DNA of 64,000 nucleotides from Spirochaetota bacterium. GTDB taxonomy: Bacteria > Spirochaetota > UBA4802 > JAGODF01. Where the stretch lies: positions 217 to 64,216 of the forward strand of contig JARKUF010000014.1 of assembly GCA_029974015.1 (NCBI GenBank), written 5' to 3'. The notes under the pieces were generated by a model. That model searched no databases. It was given only the letters and a program-made list of their open reading frames with translations, and was not told where the DNA came from. A program made the position numbers and the translations under genes. Numbering within the stretch: position 1 is the stretch's first letter; every line of letters begins with the position of its first letter. This document shows, piece by piece, positions 26,372-36,121 of the stretch.

Positions 26372-26444
<73 letters not shown>

Positions 26445-26562: not shown

Positions 26563-26886
26563 ATGGATATAAGTGCAGACAACAGCCGCTTGAAAAAAGA
26601 AAACGACCTTCTACAGCATGAACTCGAAAACTGCAGAAAAATGATACTCGGATTTGAAAAAGTCCTCAAATTGACTGAGAAAGAAATTCTTAACGCCGAA
26701 GAAATTATCAAGATGTACGAAAACATCGTGGAATTCGCCCGCAATGAGCTTATTCTGGCAACAGAAACTGTGAAAGCGCAGGAAAGCGCATCGTATTTAA
26801 GCCGACAGGAGCTAATGAACGCCCTGTCCAGGATAAGGGAACTAGAAGAGCAGAACAGGAAATATAGAGTACTGAAAGGTAAATAA
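26563..26886 (+). CDS. Small coiled-coil protein
   Basis: 107 aa, heptad-rich (LKKENDLLQHELENCRKMILGFEKVLKLTEKEIL...). RBS GGAGG upstream. First gene beyond tRNA-Ala. Confidence 0.5.
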   Translation: MDISADNSRLKKENDLLQHELENCRKMILGFEKVLKLTEKEILNAEEIIKMYENIVEFARNELILATETVKAQESASYLSRQELMNALSRIRELEEQNRKYRVLKGK

Positions 26887-26997: not shown

Positions 26998-28356
26998 ATG
27001 TTAATTACATATGTATTTGTTTTCGTTATACTTATAATTGTGACGATTTTTGTCCTCTATATCCTGTCAACATATGTTTTTCCCAGGAAAATTGAGGAAA
27101 TCGCACGCATGGTGGAAAACGGGCAGACGAAACTTGCTATAAAGAAACTTATGGAGTTAATAGAGAAGGATGACCGGAACGCTTATGCCCGCTACCTTCT
27201 TGCCGAAGCCTATTTTAAAGAAAATAACATACAATACGCAATTCTCGAATACCGCCAGGTACTGAAGCTCGCAAAATTCGACGACAAAGTCAATGAAATC
27301 AAGATCAGGTCAAAATTGGCCAAAATATACATGGATCGAAAATCAATCGACGAGGCCAGGAAGGAATATTTGATACTGTCAAAAATTGATCCGATGAACT
27401 TCCAGCATTTTTACGAGCTGGGTCTCATTTATTTCAACGCGGACCAACACGAAAAGGCCACGCCATATTTCAAAAAATCAGTCGCATTGAACAATAATCA
27501 CGCCATGTCGCTCTACTTCCTCGGCCAGATATACTATCGGATGAACCTCTACCAGGATGCAAAGCAGATGTTTCTTGAGGCAATTAAAGTTGATCATGCG
27601 AATTACCGCTCCCATTATTTTTTAGGTTTGGTTCTTCGCCAGCTTGGCGATTATGAGTGGGCCATTAAGGAATTCGAAGTGGCCCAAAAAGACGACGATA
27701 TAAAGATTAAATGCTTCCTTGCCAAAGGAACGTGCTTCATTGAGAAGGAGCTGTATCCCAAGGCCATCATCGAGTTTGAACGGGGCCTGAAATTTGCGAA
27801 GAGGGGAAGCGACACGGAATTGAACCTCAGATACTTCCTTGCCGAGGCACAGGAAAAGATGCGTGATCTCCACTCGGCAATATCCAACTGGGAAAAGATC
27901 CATGAGGTGAACAAAAATTTCCGTGATGTACAGGAGAAGCTGAAATCGTATTCGGAATTCCGCCAGGATGACCGGATAAAGGATTTCATGATAGCTGGAC
28001 TTGCCCAGTTTGAACATCTAACCAGGAAAATCGTTGAAACAATGGGGCTCACCATTCTGGATATTGACATTATCAGCGACACCGACATAGAAATTATTGC
28101 GACCGAAACCGAAGGGAAATGGCGGAACACAAGAAAGACCAACAGAATAATAAGGATCATCCGCACTACGGACACTATATCCGACAAGCTGCTAAGATCC
28201 ATTCATGAAACGATGAAACCGAAAAATGCAACACGCGCCGTGATTATTTCCACCGGCGAATACAGCCAGACTGCCGTGGAATTCTCCAACACAAGGCCCA
28301 TCGAGCTTATGAGTAAAAACGAGCTTATAAAGCTTTTGAAACATGTTGGCGCCTGA
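26998..28356 (+). CDS. TM-anchored TPR protein with C-terminal Mrr_cat-like (restriction endonuclease fold) domain
   Basis: 452 aa. N-terminal TM helix, about 7 TPR-like repeats, and a C-terminal segment FEHLTRKIVETMGLTILDIDIISDTDIEIIATE...RIIRIIRTTD...RAVIISTGEYSQTAVEFS...IELMSKNELIKLL that aligns to the Mrr_cat pattern. AT-rich codon usage. Confidence 0.6.
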   Translation: MLITYVFVFVILIIVTIFVLYILSTYVFPRKIEEIARMVENGQTKLAIKKLMELIEKDDRNAYARYLLAEAYFKENNIQYAILEYRQVLKLAKFDDKVNEIKIRSKLAKIYMDRKSIDEARKEYLILSKIDPMNFQHFYELGLIYFNADQHEKATPYFKKSVALNNNHAMSLYFLGQIYYRMNLYQDAKQMFLEAIKVDHANYRSHYFLGLVLRQLGDYEWAIKEFEVAQKDDDIKIKCFLAKGTCFIEKELYPKAIIEFERGLKFAKRGSDTELNLRYFLAEAQEKMRDLHSAISNWEKIHEVNKNFRDVQEKLKSYSEFRQDDRIKDFMIAGLAQFEHLTRKIVETMGLTILDIDIISDTDIEIIATETEGKWRNTRKTNRIIRIIRTTDTISDKLLRSIHETMKPKNATRAVIISTGEYSQTAVEFSNTRPIELMSKNELIKLLKHVGA

Positions 28357-28368
28357 TATTTCCGCCAG

Positions 28369-30186
28369 ATGGATTCATTTTACTACATTTTTGATTCGAT
28401 TCCACTTCTGAAACATTTCAATGAGAAAGAACGCTCTTTTCTTGCCGCACTGGGAAGAATTTCCAGGGTAAAAACCAACCAGATAATTGATTTAAAAAAA
28501 ATCAGCGCCTTAAACGTCATTCTGGAAGGAGTGTTTGAACTTGAGGTTTTTGGGAAAAAAGAATACATCTATCTCACGCCCGGGTCTTTTTTTGGCGACT
28601 ACCCATTCACGGACATAAAAAACCGAGGAACCATCAAGGCCGTTTCCGAAGCACGCCTTTTGCAATTCAACACAGAAGATCTCTATAAGTTCTTTTTCAC
28701 GAATTACCGGGCACTGAGGGGGTATATCCGCTCTCTGGAAAACCTCGGCATGGACCTTTCTTCTGCCAGCGCTTCCCACTTTAAAAGAAGAACAAAGATT
28801 GTTACTGTGTTCGGGACGGGGAACCGAGAAGGCAAATCCCTCTTTGCCGCTTCCCTTGCGCTTACTTTGGCGGAAAGGGGGGCAACAATTCTTCTGGATA
28901 TGTCATACGGCGGAGAATCCGTGTACACATTCTTCGAAAAAAGGCCCCCTGCTCCCCTCTCCCAGAAACAGGAAGAAAGCGATGCAAATGAGCAATTCAT
29001 AGTAGAACGCCTTGAACATGCCGCGGCAGGCCTCGATCTTCTAAATGTTCTCCATGGCTCCAATGTAAAGGCCAGTCCATCCATTCTTTCCCCGCTGCTC
29101 TTTCTGCTTTCGAAAAGCTATAAATACATCATTGTAGATCTTTCCAACAGTGACGGAGAAATAAGGGACCGCGTTTTTGAGGAATCGCATATCATACTGG
29201 GTCTAGTGACAAGAATGAAAAACCGCGATGACCTTTCAGCCATCTTTAATGACAGTATCTCCAACGGACAGCGGGTGTACTATCTGCTTAATACACACTT
29301 TCATGACAAGACCGTTTTTGAAGGCGGTTTCAGATGGGAATCAATCGGCCCGAATGAAGGAACCGATTCGAATTTTTCATTCGATGCCATGAAGGAGAGC
29401 GTACCGAAAGAAATTCCTACAATAATCTCTTCTCCAGTAAAGGCGCTTGTACTTGAAGCGAACGGGCTTGACGCCTGGGCATACGCAGGCCTTTACGACG
29501 AAATTCTCAATACCGGAGTTTTATTCGATATTCATTACTGCTCGTCCTTTGCCTTCCTGTTCCTTTTTGCGTTCTTAACCTCACAAAATGCAGATGAGTA
29601 TAAGAAAACGATAAAGAGGTTCTATCCCTGGGAGAAGATCAACGAGTTACTTGACATTACATTTCCCAAAAATGTCCTGTTTAAGAGCGCAAAGATCGCC
29701 AGATTCGCGACTGAATTGGCAAAAGACGCCAGGTTGGAATATTTTCCGGCAAGGGCCCTGCTTCTTGCTTCAAGTAAGGATTTTTCACGAAGAATCTTCA
29801 GCACCGGAAATATGGAAGAATTAATTCAAGTGTCGATGTCGGCATATCCTTTCTTCGAAGCGGGGAGAATAGGGAACGGGAAGTATATCTCCGGGTATCC
29901 TTTTACTGTCTGTAGCGTCGAAGACATCATGCCGCTGGATGTGGATACGGTCGCGGCCGTATCGGTCAAACCTCGAATCGACCATCCCGGAGCATCCGGA
30001 ATTCTCCCAATATTTTTGCATCATCATGAATATTTCGATTCCCGTGAAAAACGGCCTTTCTCTTCCCCCGGCAGGACAGCCCGACTTGAACTTGAATGGG
30101 GCGAAGATGAAAAAGACCCCGAAAAAATCCTAGAAATTGTAAGAACAAGCACTAATAAATTCTTGAAAGAAAACCGCTTTATATAA
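28369..30186 (+). CDS. Three-domain protein: cNMP-binding-like + ParA/MinD-like P-loop + patatin-like, each with non-canonical motifs
   Basis: 605 aa. The N-terminus fits the CRP/cNMP beta-barrel pattern (IPLLKHFNEKERSFLA...ILEGVFELEVFGKKEYIYLTPGSFFGD...IKAVSEARLL). The middle is KIVTVFGTGNREGKSLFAASLALTLAERGATILLDMSYGG (deviant Walker A). The C-terminus is ALVLEANGLDAWAYAGLYDEILNTGVLFDIHYCSSFAFL, a patatin-like layout with GGxRG and GxSxG altered. Confidence 0.5.
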   Translation: MDSFYYIFDSIPLLKHFNEKERSFLAALGRISRVKTNQIIDLKKISALNVILEGVFELEVFGKKEYIYLTPGSFFGDYPFTDIKNRGTIKAVSEARLLQFNTEDLYKFFFTNYRALRGYIRSLENLGMDLSSASASHFKRRTKIVTVFGTGNREGKSLFAASLALTLAERGATILLDMSYGGESVYTFFEKRPPAPLSQKQEESDANEQFIVERLEHAAAGLDLLNVLHGSNVKASPSILSPLLFLLSKSYKYIIVDLSNSDGEIRDRVFEESHIILGLVTRMKNRDDLSAIFNDSISNGQRVYYLLNTHFHDKTVFEGGFRWESIGPNEGTDSNFSFDAMKESVPKEIPTIISSPVKALVLEANGLDAWAYAGLYDEILNTGVLFDIHYCSSFAFLFLFAFLTSQNADEYKKTIKRFYPWEKINELLDITFPKNVLFKSAKIARFATELAKDARLEYFPARALLLASSKDFSRRIFSTGNMEELIQVSMSAYPFFEAGRIGNGKYISGYPFTVCSVEDIMPLDVDTVAAVSVKPRIDHPGASGILPIFLHHHEYFDSREKRPFSSPGRTARLELEWGEDEKDPEKILEIVRTSTNKFLKENRFI

Positions 30187-30233: not shown

Positions 30234-30680
30234 ATGAGATCGCGAAAAACGAATTTTCTTCAAGCGGTCGTTCTGTTAACTGGGGTTCTGTACATACTCT
30301 CCGGCGGTATATTCTCACTCTCCCCCCATCTATTTGCAGATATATTCTCCATCGATATCAATGAAGACTGGTTTAAAGAAATTCCTAGAGAGCCGTTCAT
30401 GTTCATGATGATTGCAATTTCCCGATCATTTGGCCTGCTTTTATTTACGATGGGGATTGCTATGGTACTCCCTCTCTTCGATCCCCTGCGTTATCGAGGC
30501 CTTGTTTATTTCACCGGTATTCTTTTTCCGTCCGGAGCGGCGTTTCTTTGCGCCATAAGCTGTTTGACAAACCCCCTTGGCGTTCTCATCATTTATGCGT
30601 CCCTATTTGTTCTCATAGCAGTTGCGACAATCGCCGGGCTTTTTATAACCAAAGGCACGGTAAAAACAGGCGTAGAGTGA
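30234..30680 (+). CDS. Small integral membrane protein (4 predicted TM helices)
   Basis: 148 aa, hydrophobic throughout. Confidence 0.5.
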   Translation: MRSRKTNFLQAVVLLTGVLYILSGGIFSLSPHLFADIFSIDINEDWFKEIPREPFMFMMIAISRSFGLLLFTMGIAMVLPLFDPLRYRGLVYFTGILFPSGAAFLCAISCLTNPLGVLIIYASLFVLIAVATIAGLFITKGTVKTGVE

Positions 30681-30982: not shown

Positions 30983-31318
30983 ATGGAATTGAAAACGAAG
31001 AAAAACAACAATGTGATAATTATATATCTCGCCGGGCGACTGGATGTACATCTTTCCGCTGACGTTGAAAAAGAAATCAATAAAATTATCAATGATGATC
31101 CCGCAAGCCATCTCCTGCTTAATTTACATGATGTCGAGTATATGAACAGTTCCGGGCTTCGCATCTTTGTATCAACGATGAGGATACTTAAAGAATCCAA
31201 AAGAAAACTTTTTCTCTGCAATATGAACAGTGCGGTGAAAAAAATTTTTGAAGTTGTCGAACTAATGGACATGTTTGACATTTTTGAATCTGAAGAAGAA
31301 GCGCTGAGGTCATTTTAA
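30983..31318 (+). CDS. STAS domain protein (anti-sigma factor antagonist, SpoIIAA-like)
   Basis: 111 aa. VIIIYLAGRLDVHLSADVEKEINKII...DVEYMNSSGLRIFVSTMRILKESKRKLFLCNMNSAVKKIFEVVEL is a typical STAS alpha/beta pattern with a phosphorylatable Ser in the SSGL motif. Confidence 0.75.
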   Translation: MELKTKKNNNVIIIYLAGRLDVHLSADVEKEINKIINDDPASHLLLNLHDVEYMNSSGLRIFVSTMRILKESKRKLFLCNMNSAVKKIFEVVELMDMFDIFESEEEALRSF

Positions 31319-31338: not shown

Positions 31339-33609
31339 TTGAAACTCGGCTGGAAAAAATTAATAACGAAGAAGCGTCCTCCGGCCCTTATGCCCCTGCA
31401 AACCATCGGTGCTTTACCTGATGCGTCGAAGACCGGGGGGGTGGAAAAAACCATCTCCCTTGGCCTAAAAAACTACTTGCTATTCCAGTCATATCACCAT
31501 TATCGCTGGCCCCTCTGGCTAATTTCATCAATAGATGAATTAGAACGCCACTTCAGGCCTGTAACCCCCCCGATTCTCCTGAACACGTATTATCGAGACT
31601 GGATGTACTTTACCAGCATCCTTTCATCACACAGGATTATGATAGACCATGCAGGCATGCTTACACCGACGAATGCGCCATGGTCAATTGAACTGTGGGT
31701 GCTTAACGGCAACAGGGTTTTCAGGCCGCAGGACGACTGCAATTCTATTATACAGGTCAGGGATCCCCATACTTCCCTAATAACTACGAAGTGGACCAAT
31801 AGAGACTTTACACTTCACATGGAAATGTATGGAACAAGAACTTCCATCGATGAAGCAATAGCAGACATAAGTTTTTCCACCGTTGGAAAGGCCGGGGGAA
31901 CATCACTTGTCGTGGCGGTGCGACCCTATGGAACAGAGCAGATCGGAGGGCTCCACTCCCTGGAATATCAGTCTGAAAATAAGACTGTCCGTATTAACAA
32001 TGAGACTACTTTTTATGTTAGCCACAGTCCCAGTGAAGTCTTCACGGGTAGTGGAATGTACGGAGATGTAAATTTCAGGGAAAAACAGGGAAAAGTATCT
32101 TGTTTCGACGGTATGGCTTCCATGGCCCTCGTGTATCCAGTAAAGAAAGAACTCCTGGAACTTAAAGTTAGACTTAGCCTCTCAGAAAAAAAATCCGTAG
32201 AATCGTTGAAGCTTAATTATATTTCCGTAAAGAAAGATTTTGCCGAATATCTTGACGTTATGAAACGGCAGGGTTTCATTCTTTCCATCGGAGACAAACG
32301 GCTTTCTAACTGGTTCGTCAATACAAAACTTATCTCGCTTGGAAACGTTAACCGCATGATACGCCTTCTTGGCGATAAATGCGGCGTCATAGAAGCGAGG
32401 GAATCATTTTATCTGGTAAAAGCCCTGTCGAGGATGGGATTCGACAAGGAAGCACGTCTGATCGTTGACGCATGGAGGACAAGCATTCACATTTCGGAGC
32501 GTACAGAATTTGATGATCTAATTATCTTCTGCTACTTCTTATCCTCTTTCGCCGACAGTTACCTTTTTACACGGGACACAGCTTACCTTCAAGACAACTA
32601 TGAATTTATTAAGAAGCTTGCCCATGCAGCACTGTCAGCGGGAAAGGACCTGTTTCAAAAGAAGAAAAAAAAGGCCGCACATAATTCCCTTCCATACGTG
32701 TACGCGGGGCGATACCATCTGCACGATACCCTGCTATATGCCCATACGCTTTCGCAATACGCTTACCTCTGCAGAACGATAGGGCTTTTTGGAGACGAAA
32801 TAAAGTTCTCCAGGGAGGCCGAAAGATATCACGAGATGTTATCCTATGAAATAACAGGTCTTATTGCCTCTGCGGCGGCGGAATCACCCTTAGATTCCGA
32901 TGCATTTTCAGGTATTCACGGACTTGACGAATTTATTGTGTATCTTTCATTCTGCGTCTCCCCTTTTGCGGTTGACTCGATCAAGCGCGAAGAGAAGAAG
33001 AAACTCCTTTCAATGATCAGCGCAGTGTATAAAAAGAAACCACTTTTCCTGCGTTCTTTCGGGGGATGGGATATTTTTCTTACAATTATGTTCGCTCGGA
33101 ATACGCTTCTCATGAATGATGCCGCATCCCAAGATATTATTGAGTTTTTTCTAAACATCGGGGAGCCAAGATATTCCCTTCCGGACTGCATCCATCCGGT
33201 GAGTCTGAGGGGAATCGGCGGAACCGGCGAATCTTCTATGGTGAACAGCTCTATATTCCTTTTTCTAAGAAACCTTATCCTCATTGACGGACCGAACCGT
33301 TTGGAGATTTTCCCGGTTCCGAAAGAAGAGTGGTTTCGGCCGGGAGCTGAGATAGTGGTGGAGAACGCGCCCTCGCGGTTTGGAAAGATTCATTTTAAAG
33401 TCATTTCGACCCAGAATGAAATACAGATGTATTTTACAGAACTGCCCAAGTACGTGCCTCCGGATATCATGATACATCTCCCGTACAAAACCGAGTTGAA
33501 AGAAGGAGATGATTTCATGCTGAAAAAAGAGGAAGGGTTTTCCTATATAATTAATGGATGGCCGTCTGTTATAAGGTTCGTCCGGACAGGGCAAGAAAAG
33601 AATTCATGA
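31339..33609 (+). CDS. Large hypothetical protein (possible beta-sandwich + alpha/alpha-toroid glycosidase-like fold)
   Basis: 756-aa ORF. No confident family. An N-terminal beta-rich region and a C-terminal helical region are reminiscent of GH15/GH63/debranching-enzyme-like proteins, but no catalytic motif was recognised. AT-rich. Confidence 0.45.
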   Translation: MKLGWKKLITKKRPPALMPLQTIGALPDASKTGGVEKTISLGLKNYLLFQSYHHYRWPLWLISSIDELERHFRPVTPPILLNTYYRDWMYFTSILSSHRIMIDHAGMLTPTNAPWSIELWVLNGNRVFRPQDDCNSIIQVRDPHTSLITTKWTNRDFTLHMEMYGTRTSIDEAIADISFSTVGKAGGTSLVVAVRPYGTEQIGGLHSLEYQSENKTVRINNETTFYVSHSPSEVFTGSGMYGDVNFREKQGKVSCFDGMASMALVYPVKKELLELKVRLSLSEKKSVESLKLNYISVKKDFAEYLDVMKRQGFILSIGDKRLSNWFVNTKLISLGNVNRMIRLLGDKCGVIEARESFYLVKALSRMGFDKEARLIVDAWRTSIHISERTEFDDLIIFCYFLSSFADSYLFTRDTAYLQDNYEFIKKLAHAALSAGKDLFQKKKKKAAHNSLPYVYAGRYHLHDTLLYAHTLSQYAYLCRTIGLFGDEIKFSREAERYHEMLSYEITGLIASAAAESPLDSDAFSGIHGLDEFIVYLSFCVSPFAVDSIKREEKKKLLSMISAVYKKKPLFLRSFGGWDIFLTIMFARNTLLMNDAASQDIIEFFLNIGEPRYSLPDCIHPVSLRGIGGTGESSMVNSSIFLFLRNLILIDGPNRLEIFPVPKEEWFRPGAEIVVENAPSRFGKIHFKVISTQNEIQMYFTELPKYVPPDIMIHLPYKTELKEGDDFMLKKEEGFSYIINGWPSVIRFVRTGQEKNS

Positions 33610-35174
33610 TACTTTATCTTCTCATATTTTCCGTTCTGGTTTCCGGGATTTTTCTTTATTACACATATTATATATCTCCACGCCTTAATCCAGTAAAAAA
33701 GGCGGAAAAATATCTGAAAAACGAACAGCATAATGAAGCAGTATTGGAATACAAGAAGGCGCTTGACCGTAATGGCGCTGATTTCGTGGTACATTTCAGG
33801 CTCGCGAATATCTACCTGCAGCAGAAAGAAATCGACCAGGCCGTACTGCACCTGGAAAAAATCCTGGACTTGAACGCATTCAATTACGAAGTGGAAAAGC
33901 TTGATGTTCAGAAAAAACTGGCCTCCGCATATCAGGTTCGCGACGAACCCGAAAAGGCATTCCAGATGTATTATGACATCCTGAGATACTACCCGGTGGA
34001 TCAGGAAGCATTGTATAATGTGACGTTCATGGCCCTCGGACAGGAAGAGTTCGAAATAGCACAGCGTTACGCAGAAAAACTCGTCAATCTCATGCCCAAT
34101 AGTTTTGAAGTCGTTTTTGCCGCCGGCATGTGTAATTACCAGAACAAGAGGATTAATGACGCATCGAGTTACTTCAAGACGGCCGCCGCACTGAAACCCG
34201 GTTCCGACATAGCAAACCTTGCTGCGGCCTTGACCCTGCAGAAAAAGGGGGATTACAGACTCGCCCTTTCATATGTCCAAAAAATCCCGGAAAACGATAA
34301 CGATCCAGGTGTGATTTTTATTTCTAGAAGGCTCCAGGGAATCATTCTCCTTCAGGGGCGTAAGCACGATGAAGCAATAAAAATCTTTGAGGAGCTTCTA
34401 AATTTCGCCAAAACAAATGAAATGCAGGAAGAGGTTCTATTGGTCCTGTACGATATCGGCTTCGTCGCAGCGAAAGCGGAAAGGACAAACCAGGCCTACG
34501 AATACTGGAACGAGCTTTACAGGCTCGATAAGTCGTACAAAAAAATCCAATCTCTGGTGATGATGCTCAGGAAGGAAATGGAGTTGGATTACAGAACAGC
34601 AATGGAAGAACCGCAGTCTTCGCTTGACGATTACACGGAGGCCTGGCTCGAAGAAATATTTCCCGCAGATTTTCTCTGGAATATCTGTGGTTTGAAGAGC
34701 GACAGGAAATTGAACCTGAAAGGAATAATGACTACGGCCCGTGTGCAGACAGCCCACGGGGACGAAAGTGGCCTGGAGCTCGGTTCGGGAGCAAATTTCG
34801 AGAAGTTAGAACGGTTCAATACGATGAATGTGGAAAATTTCAGAATAGCCTCAAACAGACTCGTCGCTAAGATGGGGTATAAGGTGGAACAAATACTCCA
34901 AACATACCGAGAAAACGACGGTGTCGACTTTCTTGCCGTCTCCCCTGAAAAGGAAAAAACCCTGATCTGGGTGAGGAGATGGACCAAGGCGAGGGTCGGA
35001 GAAATTCCTTTTAGAAATTTTGCCCAGGCTATAAATGACATAAAGGCGAAAAAGGGCGTTTTTGTAACATCCTCGGAAATAACCGAGGCGGCTGAAATTA
35101 GCCTTAAGAACCTCTCTAAGGTGGTTGTCGTTCAGCCCGATGAACTCGCCTCGCTTCTGGAGGGGCTGGTGTGA
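33606..35174 (+). CDS. TM-anchored TPR protein with C-terminal Mrr_cat-like domain (paralog of 26998..28356)
   Basis: Start chosen at the ATG overlapping the upstream stop (ATGA at 33606-33609); the longer 33558 ORF start is less likely. N-terminal TM helix, TPR repeats, and a C-terminus FEKLERF...RLVAKMGYKVEQILQTYRENDGVDFLAV...LIWVRRWTKARVGEIPFRNFAQAINDIKAKKGVFVTSSEITEAAE...VVVVQPDELASLL that is closely Mrr_cat-like. Confidence 0.65.
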   Translation: MILYLLIFSVLVSGIFLYYTYYISPRLNPVKKAEKYLKNEQHNEAVLEYKKALDRNGADFVVHFRLANIYLQQKEIDQAVLHLEKILDLNAFNYEVEKLDVQKKLASAYQVRDEPEKAFQMYYDILRYYPVDQEALYNVTFMALGQEEFEIAQRYAEKLVNLMPNSFEVVFAAGMCNYQNKRINDASSYFKTAAALKPGSDIANLAAALTLQKKGDYRLALSYVQKIPENDNDPGVIFISRRLQGIILLQGRKHDEAIKIFEELLNFAKTNEMQEEVLLVLYDIGFVAAKAERTNQAYEYWNELYRLDKSYKKIQSLVMMLRKEMELDYRTAMEEPQSSLDDYTEAWLEEIFPADFLWNICGLKSDRKLNLKGIMTTARVQTAHGDESGLELGSGANFEKLERFNTMNVENFRIASNRLVAKMGYKVEQILQTYRENDGVDFLAVSPEKEKTLIWVRRWTKARVGEIPFRNFAQAINDIKAKKGVFVTSSEITEAAEISLKNLSKVVVVQPDELASLLEGLV

Positions 35175-36121
35175 ACCCCGCCATGCAGGCCCTGCCAGTG
35201 GAAAACATCAACGTTTCCCACATAGATTTTACAGATAACCGCTACAAAATCAGCAAACCCGAAATCAGCGATCAGCTTATGCGGTCGATTAAGACCCATG
35301 GCCTTCTGGAGTTTCCCGTGCTTCTTCCTCAGTATGAAAAATACATCGTTGTTGGAGGGCATAATAGACTTGTAGCCGCAAAAAATACCGGTGCGTCCAC
35401 AGTCCCTTGCAGGATTATGGACCCCTTCGACATGGGAACCTTTCTCGGCCATGCGGTCCTGAAAATTGACCGAGGTGAGGTTGGACCTATCGGGCGCCTT
35501 AAGCTTTACAACCTGCTGAAAAAAACGAAAACTGAAGCGATTCAAAACGATCGGTTGTTTGCAAGAAGGGAATTAGGCATACCCGATTTCCTGCTTGGCG
35601 ACGAAGCAGCCATAGAAACGATATTATCCATTCCTGATACAATTGCCTTCTATGCGGACTCCAGGGATGTGCACTACAGGGTTTTGCGTGAAATTGGCGG
35701 TATGTCAAGTGCCGCCGTGTCGTTGCTCTCTTCCTGGCTCGACCAAATACCAATGAGGGTTAATATCTTCAGAGAGGTCGTCGAAATGTTGTCGGAAATA
35801 TCACGTCGTGACGGATCCATTGAAACGGCTTCGGCGATTAAAATACCGGATATCCGCGACCCCAGAGGACGCGAGAACAGCCTTCATTCATCGTTGATGT
35901 CACTTCGGTGTCCACGCTACACGGTTTTAAAGGAAGAGGCCGATAATCTTATTGCGAAGCTGAGGGCCGTGGGAATCGAAGTAACTTTCCCGAATTATTT
36001 CGAAGGCGATACAATTGGCCTTACAGTAAAGGTTTCGAAAAAGGACGGCCCGGCCGTAGTTCGGGATACATTTACACGGGCGGATGAGGAGACTTTAGGC
36101 AAGTTGCTGGATTTGCTGTGA
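35171..36121 (+). CDS. ParB-like nuclease (ParBc) domain protein
   Basis: 316 aa (GTG start; alternative ATG at 35183). ParB N-terminal-domain pattern IDFTDNRYKISKPEISDQLMRSIKTHGLLEFPVLL...YIVVGGHNRLVAAKNTG. The C-terminal 200 aa are unassigned. Confidence 0.6.
   Translation: MNPAMQALPVENINVSHIDFTDNRYKISKPEISDQLMRSIKTHGLLEFPVLLPQYEKYIVVGGHNRLVAAKNTGASTVPCRIMDPFDMGTFLGHAVLKIDRGEVGPIGRLKLYNLLKKTKTEAIQNDRLFARRELGIPDFLLGDEAAIETILSIPDTIAFYADSRDVHYRVLREIGGMSSAAVSLLSSWLDQIPMRVNIFREVVEMLSEISRRDGSIETASAIKIPDIRDPRGRENSLHSSLMSLRCPRYTVLKEEADNLIAKLRAVGIEVTFPNYFEGDTIGLTVKVSKKDGPAVVRDTFTRADEETLGKLLDLL

Follow-up and report, generated by a model that had tools for sequence, protein, structure and literature searches.

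Two putatively membrane-anchored TPR proteins with degenerate Mrr-fold domains in a conserved operon of uncultured Spirochaetota

A stretch of 64,000 nucleotides from a Spirochaetota bacterium (assembly GCA_029974015.1, contig JARKUF010000014.1, positions 217 to 64,216; hereafter the window) contains two genes, here called A and B, whose products join a hydrophobic N-terminal segment and an array of tetratricopeptide repeats (TPRs) to a C-terminal domain related to the catalytic domain of Mrr restriction endonucleases. We found that key active-site positions of Mrr are substituted in both proteins, that the pattern of substitution extends across a large family, and that both genes are part of a conserved operon of seven genes with housekeeping neighbours. 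The C-terminal domains are very likely non-catalytic. With rather less assurance, we think it probable that A and B are membrane-tethered cytoplasmic TPR scaffolds with non-cutting Mrr-fold binding heads, and that they work in some housekeeping process alongside the soluble proteins encoded by the operon. An initial annotation of the window, made from the letters and a list of open reading frames (ORFs), had drawn attention to the two proteins, and both ORFs are present in the ORF list where it had placed them:

26998 to 28356, forward strand: ORF A, 452 amino acids; predicted N-terminal membrane anchor, TPR region and degenerate Mrr-fold domain (ORF list, Pfam, homologue alignment).
33606 to 35174, forward strand: ORF B, 522 amino acids; predicted N-terminal membrane anchor, TPR region, flexible linker and degenerate Mrr-fold domain (ORF list, Pfam, AlphaFold).

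The ATG at 33606 is favoured as the start of B over that of a longer ORF from 33558, as all 28 of the aligned homologues begin there, and nearly all of the listed B homologues are 517-528 residues long. For A we found 357 homologues, mostly of about 450 residues. The C-terminal part of each protein was matched by the Mrr_cat model of Pfam (PF04471) well above its gathering score of 21 bits and far beyond chance: B scored 59.2 bits (E 5e-16) over residues 405-518, and A scored 46.1 bits (E 6e-12) over residues 336-447. The C-termini are thus Mrr_cat-like, as had been proposed. The domains and their key positions are as follows:

34818 to 35159, forward strand: Mrr_cat-like domain of B, residues 405-518, with an alpha-beta-beta-beta-alpha-beta core (Pfam, domain model, Foldseek).
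34926 to 34928, forward strand: D441 of B, retained at the position of the catalytic Asp, D203 of EcoKMrr (profile alignment, numbering).
34968 to 34982, forward strand: W455-V-R457-R458-W459 of B, replacing Q219-A-K221-R222-W223 of Mrr (profile alignment to EcoKMrr).
28003 to 28338, forward strand: Mrr_cat-like domain of A, residues 336-447 (Pfam PF04471; hhalign to the B domain; MAFFT with Mrr and bridging sequences).
28090 to 28092, forward strand: E365 of A, aligned with the catalytic Asp, D203 of EcoKMrr, and conserved to at least 90% across the A family (alignments).
28153 to 28164, forward strand: R386-I387-I388-R389 of A, with R386 at the Mrr Q219 position, I388 at K221 and R389 at R222 (alignments).

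A structure search had been suggested as a check on the fold. Residues 396-522 of B, modelled alone, gave a predicted local distance difference test score (pLDDT) of 94.5 and a predicted template modelling score of 0.89, with secondary-structure elements in the order alpha-alpha-beta-beta-beta-alpha-beta-alpha-beta-alpha. Against the PDB, Foldseek matched this model to the N-terminal domain of Rpb5 (E 2.4e-5), to MspJI (E 3e-5, template modelling (TM) score 0.66) and to AspBHI (TM score 0.72), with further matches to EndoMS/NucS and to the Mrr-like protein AF1548 (1y88). The C-terminal segment of B thus lies, by this model, on an Mrr-type PD-(D/E)xK fold, and the refuting outcome that the initial annotation had named for the fold did not occur. 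Nor did the rest of the domain show an intact D-(D/E)xK. Structure was modelled for B only, and the Mrr fold of the A domain rests on alignment to B and to Mrr.

The reference for the active site was EcoKMrr from E. coli K-12, in which D203 lies in GDGGID, and Q219 and K221 lie in VQAKRW. A profile of the B domain, built from 25 family members, aligned with EcoKMrr at 41.9 bits over Mrr residues 157-281; together with the fold search, this alignment reproduced the block-by-block correspondence to Mrr that the initial annotation had drawn. It pairs D203 with D441, Q219 with W455, K221 with R457, R222 with R458 and W223 with W459, and the Glu of the first core helix (alpha1) of EcoKMrr aligns with R413. 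Across the core clade of B, D438, D441, R457, R458 and W459 do not vary, and W455 is conserved to at least 90%. Three further charged residues are invariant: E466, which aligns with a non-catalytic residue of Mrr, D478, and K480, which aligns with the lysine of the KAKRG block of Mrr. Of the 28 aligned B sequences, a single core-clade homologue (P0098) lacks Trp at the old Q/E position; it reads LFEVRRW instead of LVWVRRW and has Glu there.

In A the positions of E365, R386 and I388 were agreed on by four independent alignments: a profile-profile hhalign of the A domain against the B domain (120 columns, E 5.7e-4), an hmmsearch of an A profile against Mrr, a MAFFT alignment including Mrr and bridging sequences, and a BLASTP route by way of P0286, an A-type orthologue that is 30% identical along its entire length (E 1e-63) and retains GVDF...EVLRW. 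Within the A family, the residue at the I388 position is a variable hydrophobic one and R389 is invariant. The initial annotation had the catalytic lysine replaced by arginine in both proteins. This is correct for B, where R457 takes its place, but not for A, where I388 stands at the lysine position and R389 corresponds to R222 of Mrr; A has lost its lysine to a hydrophobic residue rather than to arginine. In other words, the active Mrr-type triad, D...(Q/E)-x-K, reads D441/W455/R457 in B and E365/R386/I388 in A, and is intact in neither. The A domain also carries an insertion, E-G-K-W-R-N (residues 372-377, 28111 to 28128, forward strand), between strands 2 and 3 of the Mrr fold; of its residues, G373 to N377 do not vary and E372 is conserved to at least 90%. 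The insertion is confined to the core-clade A proteins, and the distant A-type proteins P0286 and P0318 are without it.

The substitutions are not peculiar to this genome. We searched the profile of the B domain against 1.84 billion representative proteins and obtained 975 matches at E <= 1e-3, 74 of them at E <= 1e-10. The best 150 of the 975 matches were aligned to the profile and the key columns were read for two sets of clusters: 73 long clusters (at least 430 residues, with the domain C-terminal), 70 of which have a hydrophobic N-terminal segment, and 50 Mrr-sized clusters (250-400 residues) found with the same profile.

Lys position: R 68, K 4 and L 1 in the 73 long clusters; K 41 in the 50 Mrr-sized clusters.
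Q/E position: scattered in the long clusters (Q 19, S 10, A 10, W 8, R 7); Q or E 42 in the Mrr-sized clusters.
Asp position: D 60 and N 10 in the long clusters; D 45 in the Mrr-sized clusters.
Glu of helix alpha1: E 12 in the long clusters; E 40 in the Mrr-sized clusters.

The exchange of lysine for arginine, for which a family-wide comparison had been recommended, is therefore a property of the long family, and the Mrr-sized proteins mostly keep the lysine. One and the same profile recovers ordinary Mrr enzymes with an intact site and, apart from them, a large TPR-fused family in which the site is broken. That arginine is strongly conserved at the lysine position while the metal-binding positions vary argues against a working nuclease site in the TPR-fused family, and the same pattern speaks for a pocket that has kept a non-catalytic use. 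It might, for instance, hold a salt bridge between D441 and R457, or a binding site for an anionic group.

The TPR-fused family is sizeable, with dozens of clusters at 50% identity, and every member whose source could be traced came from a Spirochaetota assembly. The close relatives of A and B are all from metagenome-assembled genomes of uncultured Spirochaetota, many labelled Leptospirales or Leptospiraceae. The window itself also matches contig JAPXOM010000010.1 of the NCBI assembly GCA_033811455.1. In existing sources, these proteins are labelled either with the generic 'TPR repeat protein' or as 'restriction endonuclease', and we found no description of a membrane-anchored TPR and Mrr-fold architecture in the literature. 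The architecture had been called unusual; it is so relative to the characterised Mrr enzymes, but with this many clusters it is not rare.

The remaining parts of the two proteins were delimited as follows:

33609 to 33677, forward strand: uncharged hydrophobic N-terminal segment of B, residues 2-24, followed by a net positive stretch (translation, charge count; helix 2-27 in the model).
33690 to 34583, forward strand: TPR superhelix of B, 17 helices, residues 29-326 (secondary structure of the model, Pfam TPR, Foldseek).
34659 to 34700, forward strand: linker motif of B, FPxDFLWxICGLKS, residues 352-365 (alignment of 28 sequences, translation).
27001 to 27075, forward strand: uncharged hydrophobic N-terminal segment of A, residues 2-26, followed by P-R-K; read as a membrane anchor (translation).

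Multiple Pfam TPR models scored above threshold on the first two-thirds of both A and B. The AlphaFold2 model of full-length B, computed from the 28-sequence alignment, has a mean pLDDT of 86.4. Its N-terminus is one long helix (residues 2-27), which is followed by 17 helices in residues 29-326, or about 8 TPR-like hairpins, and then by a partly disordered linker (pLDDT below 50 at residues 329-333 and 377-396) with a compact C-terminal domain beyond it. Generic TPR superhelices were the sole matches when the full-length model was compared with the PDB using Foldseek. The initial annotation was thus right about a TPR region, although its count of about 7 repeats has to give way to about 8 in the model of B. 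Within the linker, the motif FPxDFLWxICGLKS matched no known domain; among the 28 sequences F352, P353, C361 and L363 are invariant, and W358, I360, G362, K364 and S365 are at least 90% conserved.

The proposal that A and B are paralogues is supported by a collinear alignment of residues 2-312 of A with residues 1-315 of B at 22% identity (E 4e-19), and the profile-profile alignment of the C-terminal domains described above points the same way. The hydrophobic N-terminal anchor that had been proposed also agrees with the family alignments and with the long helix in the model of B. In both families the first 25-29 residues are uncharged and are followed by P-R or P-R-K; in each of the 26 members of the A family considered, no charge occurs before position 29-30. 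As read from the sequence, these segments have neither a Cys lipobox nor a positively charged n-region, and for this reason we infer that the segment is an uncleaved anchor helix and that the bulk of each protein is probably cytoplasmic.

The main context, which was absent from the initial annotation, is a conserved operon. We scanned one genome per species with the A alignment and compared ten proteins of the window, using tblastn, with the 80 loci returned, 58 of which had enough downstream sequence for the operon to be counted. In 55 of these 58 species-level loci, all from uncultured Leptospirales-like genomes, seven genes lie in the same order on one strand: A, a 605-residue protein, a 148-residue hydrophobic protein, a 111-residue STAS protein, a protein of roughly 750 residues, B, and a 316-residue ParB_N-like protein. 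The gene greA lies directly upstream of the operon in most loci. The five partners of A and B in the window are:

28369 to 30186, forward strand: 605-residue partner, putatively with a cNMP-binding-like domain, a ParA/MinD-like P-loop domain and a patatin-like domain (orthologue Pfam matches, PDB profile matches, synteny).
30234 to 30680, forward strand: 148-residue hydrophobic partner (ORF list; position conserved in 55 of 58 loci).
30983 to 31318, forward strand: 111-residue STAS-domain partner (Pfam STAS, E 1.7e-21).
31339 to 33609, forward strand: partner of about 740-756 residues, the stop of which overlaps the start of B (ATGA).
35171 to 36121, forward strand: 316-residue partner with a putative N-terminal domain of ParB_N/sulfiredoxin fold and the motif GGHNR; its GTG start overlaps the stop of B (GTGA).

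The overlaps at the two ends of B, ATGA with the preceding stop and GTGA with the next start, suggest translational coupling. Median identity to the window was 78% for the STAS protein, 67% for A, 60% for GreA, 48% for B and 31-41% for the other operon proteins. At 67% against 60%, A equals or exceeds a core transcription factor in conservation. The three remaining loci (L067, L074 and L048) lack B and the ParB_N-like gene downstream of otherwise conserved genes; L074 is missing everything beyond the 605-residue gene, and the sequence of L048 includes a short stretch of N. The more distant genes of the B type are solitary, with mutL/coaBC or recG/rsmD around them.

The operon is flanked by greA, a DUF1015 gene, a tRNA-Ala gene, a gene for a DHH/DHHA1 protein and the gene for the alpha subunit of glycyl-tRNA synthetase (tRNA-synt_2e). 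The tRNA-Ala gene (anticodon GGC; 26372 to 26444, reverse strand) lies between the DUF1015 gene and the operon. Just upstream of A, an ORF of 107 residues (26563 to 26886, forward strand) encodes a protein rich in Glu, Lys and Leu that may form a coiled coil. This ORF is kept, at 50-82% identity, in the closer genomes only, which are those that also have DUF1015 between greA and A.

Of the partners, the STAS protein is the most conserved gene product of the cluster, with identities ranging from 67% to 88% across the clade; no anti-sigma kinase or phosphatase partner for it was found in the operon. Among 21 orthologues of the 605-residue protein, Pfam detected cNMP_binding in 20 and Patatin in 7, with AAA_31, CbiA and ParA in a few, and a profile of the family matched Borrelia PF-32 (ParA-type, E 1.4e-8) and the patatin PlpD (E 0.008) in the PDB. 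In the window copy the patatin part is too degenerate for detection by Pfam. Such a three-domain fusion is unusual, and it is kept in all 55 complete operons. The 756-residue protein of the window has no Pfam match, and a faint resemblance to six-hairpin glycosidases (rhamnosidase, GH95, O-GlcNAcase) can be seen in a few orthologues; its start is uncertain, as the ORF tool chose a TTG at 31339 and the NCBI call begins downstream, giving a protein 17 residues shorter (739 amino acids). The 316-residue protein scored 24 bits with Pfam ParB_N, just under the cut-off, and weakly with the NCBIfam models SerK, Noc and ParB; its best PDB match is 1vk1, followed by Spo0J/ParB and a free serine kinase, and no helix-turn-helix (HTH) or centromere-binding domain was detected in it. 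The domain assignments of the 605-, 756- and 316-residue partners are weak and are used here as context only.

Taken together, these data lead us to favour the following picture. A and B would be ancient paralogues, each held in the inner membrane by one N-terminal helix, with the TPR superhelix and the C-terminal domain most likely facing the cytoplasm. The C-terminal domain would be a true descendant of the Mrr-type PD-(D/E)xK fold in which the metal-binding and general-base constellation has been lost and which, therefore, would not cut DNA. In B the old active-site pocket would have been rebuilt around D441, R413, W455, R457, R458 and W459, and in A around E365, R386 and R389, with the basic EGKWRN loop between strands 2 and 3. 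The rebuilt pocket may bind a phosphate-bearing ligand or a partner protein without catalysing a reaction. The TPR superhelix may recruit the soluble proteins of the operon, namely the ParA-like/cNMP/patatin-like, STAS, 756-residue and ParB_N-like proteins, and A, B and the recruited proteins would form a membrane-tethered housekeeping complex. A broader proposal, that the seven-gene cluster is a previously undescribed membrane-associated machine specific to the uncultured Leptospirales-like lineage, in which the dead Mrr domains are heads that recognise a ligand or DNA, carried on TPR scaffolds, and in which several of the other subunits may themselves be degenerate enzymes, is tentative and on balance doubtful.

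Several observations weigh against this picture. B keeps D441 and an invariant basic residue at the lysine position, and a divergent nuclease or phosphotransferase site would be compatible with its sequence. Taken by itself, the profile-profile alignment of the two C-terminal domains is weak (probability 29.6%). The proposed orientation depends on the distribution of charge and on the cytoplasmic nature of the partner families, and the net charge just after the helix of A is about zero. Gene order is all that ties A and B to the other operon proteins. Finally, the domains are not notably basic: their median predicted isoelectric point (pI) is 6.5 for the B type and 8.2 for the A type, or near neutral, and charge therefore does not favour generic DNA binding by the proposed heads.

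We weighed three other explanations. It is highly unlikely, in our judgement, that A and B are working nucleases with a divergent site, for example that B is a membrane-anchored Type IV (modification-dependent) enzyme in which Arg457 does the work of Lys and D438 and D441 bind the metal. Such an enzyme would be consistent with the Mrr_cat scores of both proteins, with the invariance of D441 and, in the core clade, of D438, with a positive charge at the lysine position in 72 of the 73 long clusters, with the name 'restriction endonuclease' in some sources, and with weak PADLOC matches to mREase_IV. However, the metal site of Mrr-type enzymes is completed by the alpha1 Glu and the residue at the Q/E position, neither of which is conserved across the family (R413 and W455 in B), and in A the lysine position holds a variable hydrophobic residue. 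No DNA- or modification-recognition domain of the Mrr_N or SRA-like kind was found by Pfam in A or B, where only TPR models precede the domain, whereas EcoKMrr matches Mrr_N. Both genes are also fixed in a housekeeping operon in 55 of 58 genomes, with A as conserved as GreA, while defence genes are usually patchy and fast-evolving. Searches of PADLOC-DB 2.0 gave weak single-domain matches only, at 15-26 bits: A matched mREase_IV, PDC-S02 and PDC-M16B, B matched mREase_IV, and the ParB_N-like protein matched MTase_II. Given these weak matches and the fixed gene order next to greA in 55 of 58 loci, we rejected a defence-system reading; to judge from its gene content and order, the locus does not look like a restriction or defence locus.

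A dead Mrr domain could instead bind DNA and tether the chromosome or a plasmid to the membrane, as part of a positioning or segregation device with the ParA-like and ParB_N-like proteins. We consider this improbable, if less so than a nuclease. The Mrr fold is a fold of DNA enzymes, the closest solved relative by both profile and structure is the non-catalytic N-terminal domain of Rpb5 of eukaryotic RNA polymerases, the operon encodes a ParA/MinD-like P-loop (the match to Borrelia PF-32) together with a ParB_N-like protein, and A has the invariant basic loop GKWRN. Despite that loop, a charge-based case for generic DNA binding finds no support in the near-neutral predicted pI. The ParB_N-like protein, in which an HTH or centromere-binding domain was not detected, resembles serine-kinase/sulfiredoxin-type members as much as it resembles ParB, and distant B-type genes occur without the ParA-like and ParB-like genes. 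We believe it as unlikely as a nuclease that A and B work in the manner of LapB (YciM). They would then be anchored cytoplasmic TPR adaptors that sense a metabolite or an envelope precursor through their small C-terminal domain and pass a client enzyme on to a membrane protease or some other regulator. In favour of this, A and B are laid out like LapB, with an N-terminal helix followed by about 8-9 cytoplasmic TPRs and a compact domain at the C-terminus, most of the TPR region of B is covered by sub-threshold matches to LapB models, and the neighbourhood is a housekeeping one. Yet those matches score 30-36 bits against cut-offs of 363-474, which generic TPR similarity could explain, the defining rubredoxin-like zinc domain is absent, and no FtsH or LpxC gene is linked in the core clade, an LpxC gene lying 8 kb away in one distant locus only. 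Of the two outcomes that the initial annotation had left side by side, a divergent active site or a non-catalytic role in DNA binding or sensing, the non-catalytic alternative is thus the one we favour; the specific DNA-binding or sensor role finds no such backing, as the domains are not notably basic.

A and B are members of Mrr_cat by Pfam, but they are almost certainly not restriction endonucleases and should not be filed as such, because the catalytic triad fails and the DNA-recognition domain is lacking. The label is misleading, and setting it aside guards against counting genes of the A and B type as defence systems. If the favoured reading holds, the family represents an Mrr fold turned into a non-catalytic module with a conserved Arg-Arg/Lys-Trp signature. 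To us, the most interesting aspect is the operon itself, which is tightly conserved, as much so as greA, in a widespread uncultured group, and which would offer a concrete target for cell biology given a cultured or genetically tractable relative.

Among known systems, the C-terminal domains are most plainly related to EcoKMrr and the other Mrr_cat enzymes, including the catalytic domains of MspJI and AspBHI, with which they share the predicted fold, detectable sequence homology and a Pfam score above threshold. Over 125 residues the B profile shares with EcoKMrr the G-x-D, K/R-R-W and KAK-x-G-hydrophobic-T-S blocks. Unlike these enzymes, B has W-x-R and A has R-x-I in the active site, and the alpha1 Glu is lost; the two proteins carry a predicted membrane anchor and about 8 TPRs in place of an Mrr_N or SRA-like domain, and their genes lie in a housekeeping operon and not in a restriction locus. 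NA-iREase1 (PF22722, 'NACHT-associated inactive restriction endonuclease 1') offers a likeness of another kind, an inactivated Mrr-like domain used as a non-catalytic module. B matches this model at 31.5 bits (threshold 27) and A does not match it, and no NACHT/STAND NTPase was found in A, in B or in the operon. We rejected the match as evidence of inactivity, as the active EcoKMrr scores higher with the same model (40.9 bits).

LapB, an adaptor in a housekeeping process, is built from a membrane helix at the N-terminus, TPRs in the cytoplasm and a compact domain at the C-terminus. The layout of A and B is the same, and B has collinear sub-threshold matches to LapB, for example residues 35-330 against positions 44-334 of a 388-position profile (E 1.6e-7). 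The C-terminal domain, however, has the Mrr fold and not that of a rubredoxin-type zinc domain, and the best scores with the NCBIfam equivalog models of LapB were 24-36 bits against cut-offs of 363-474, which places A and B outside that family.

The nearest functional analogy is the N-terminal domain of Rpb5 (PF03871), a non-catalytic structural or binding module that has been classed as a PD-(D/E)xK fold (PMC3424549). When the PDB was searched by sequence with both C-terminal domains, singly and as profiles, Rpb5 was the only significant match (E 0.0016), and it is the best PDB match to the B domain by profile and by Foldseek alike. Like B, it has Trp at the Q/E position, and the two have the V-G and R-x-F blocks in common. 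Rpb5 differs in being eukaryotic, soluble and part of a polymerase, and the similarity is marginal (TM score about 0.5, 20% identity) and could stem from the active site having been lost in parallel, and not from a close relationship. On the reading that we favour, A and B would add a bacterial housekeeping example to the few PD-(D/E)xK folds that have been reused without catalysis, such as those of Rpb5 and RecC.

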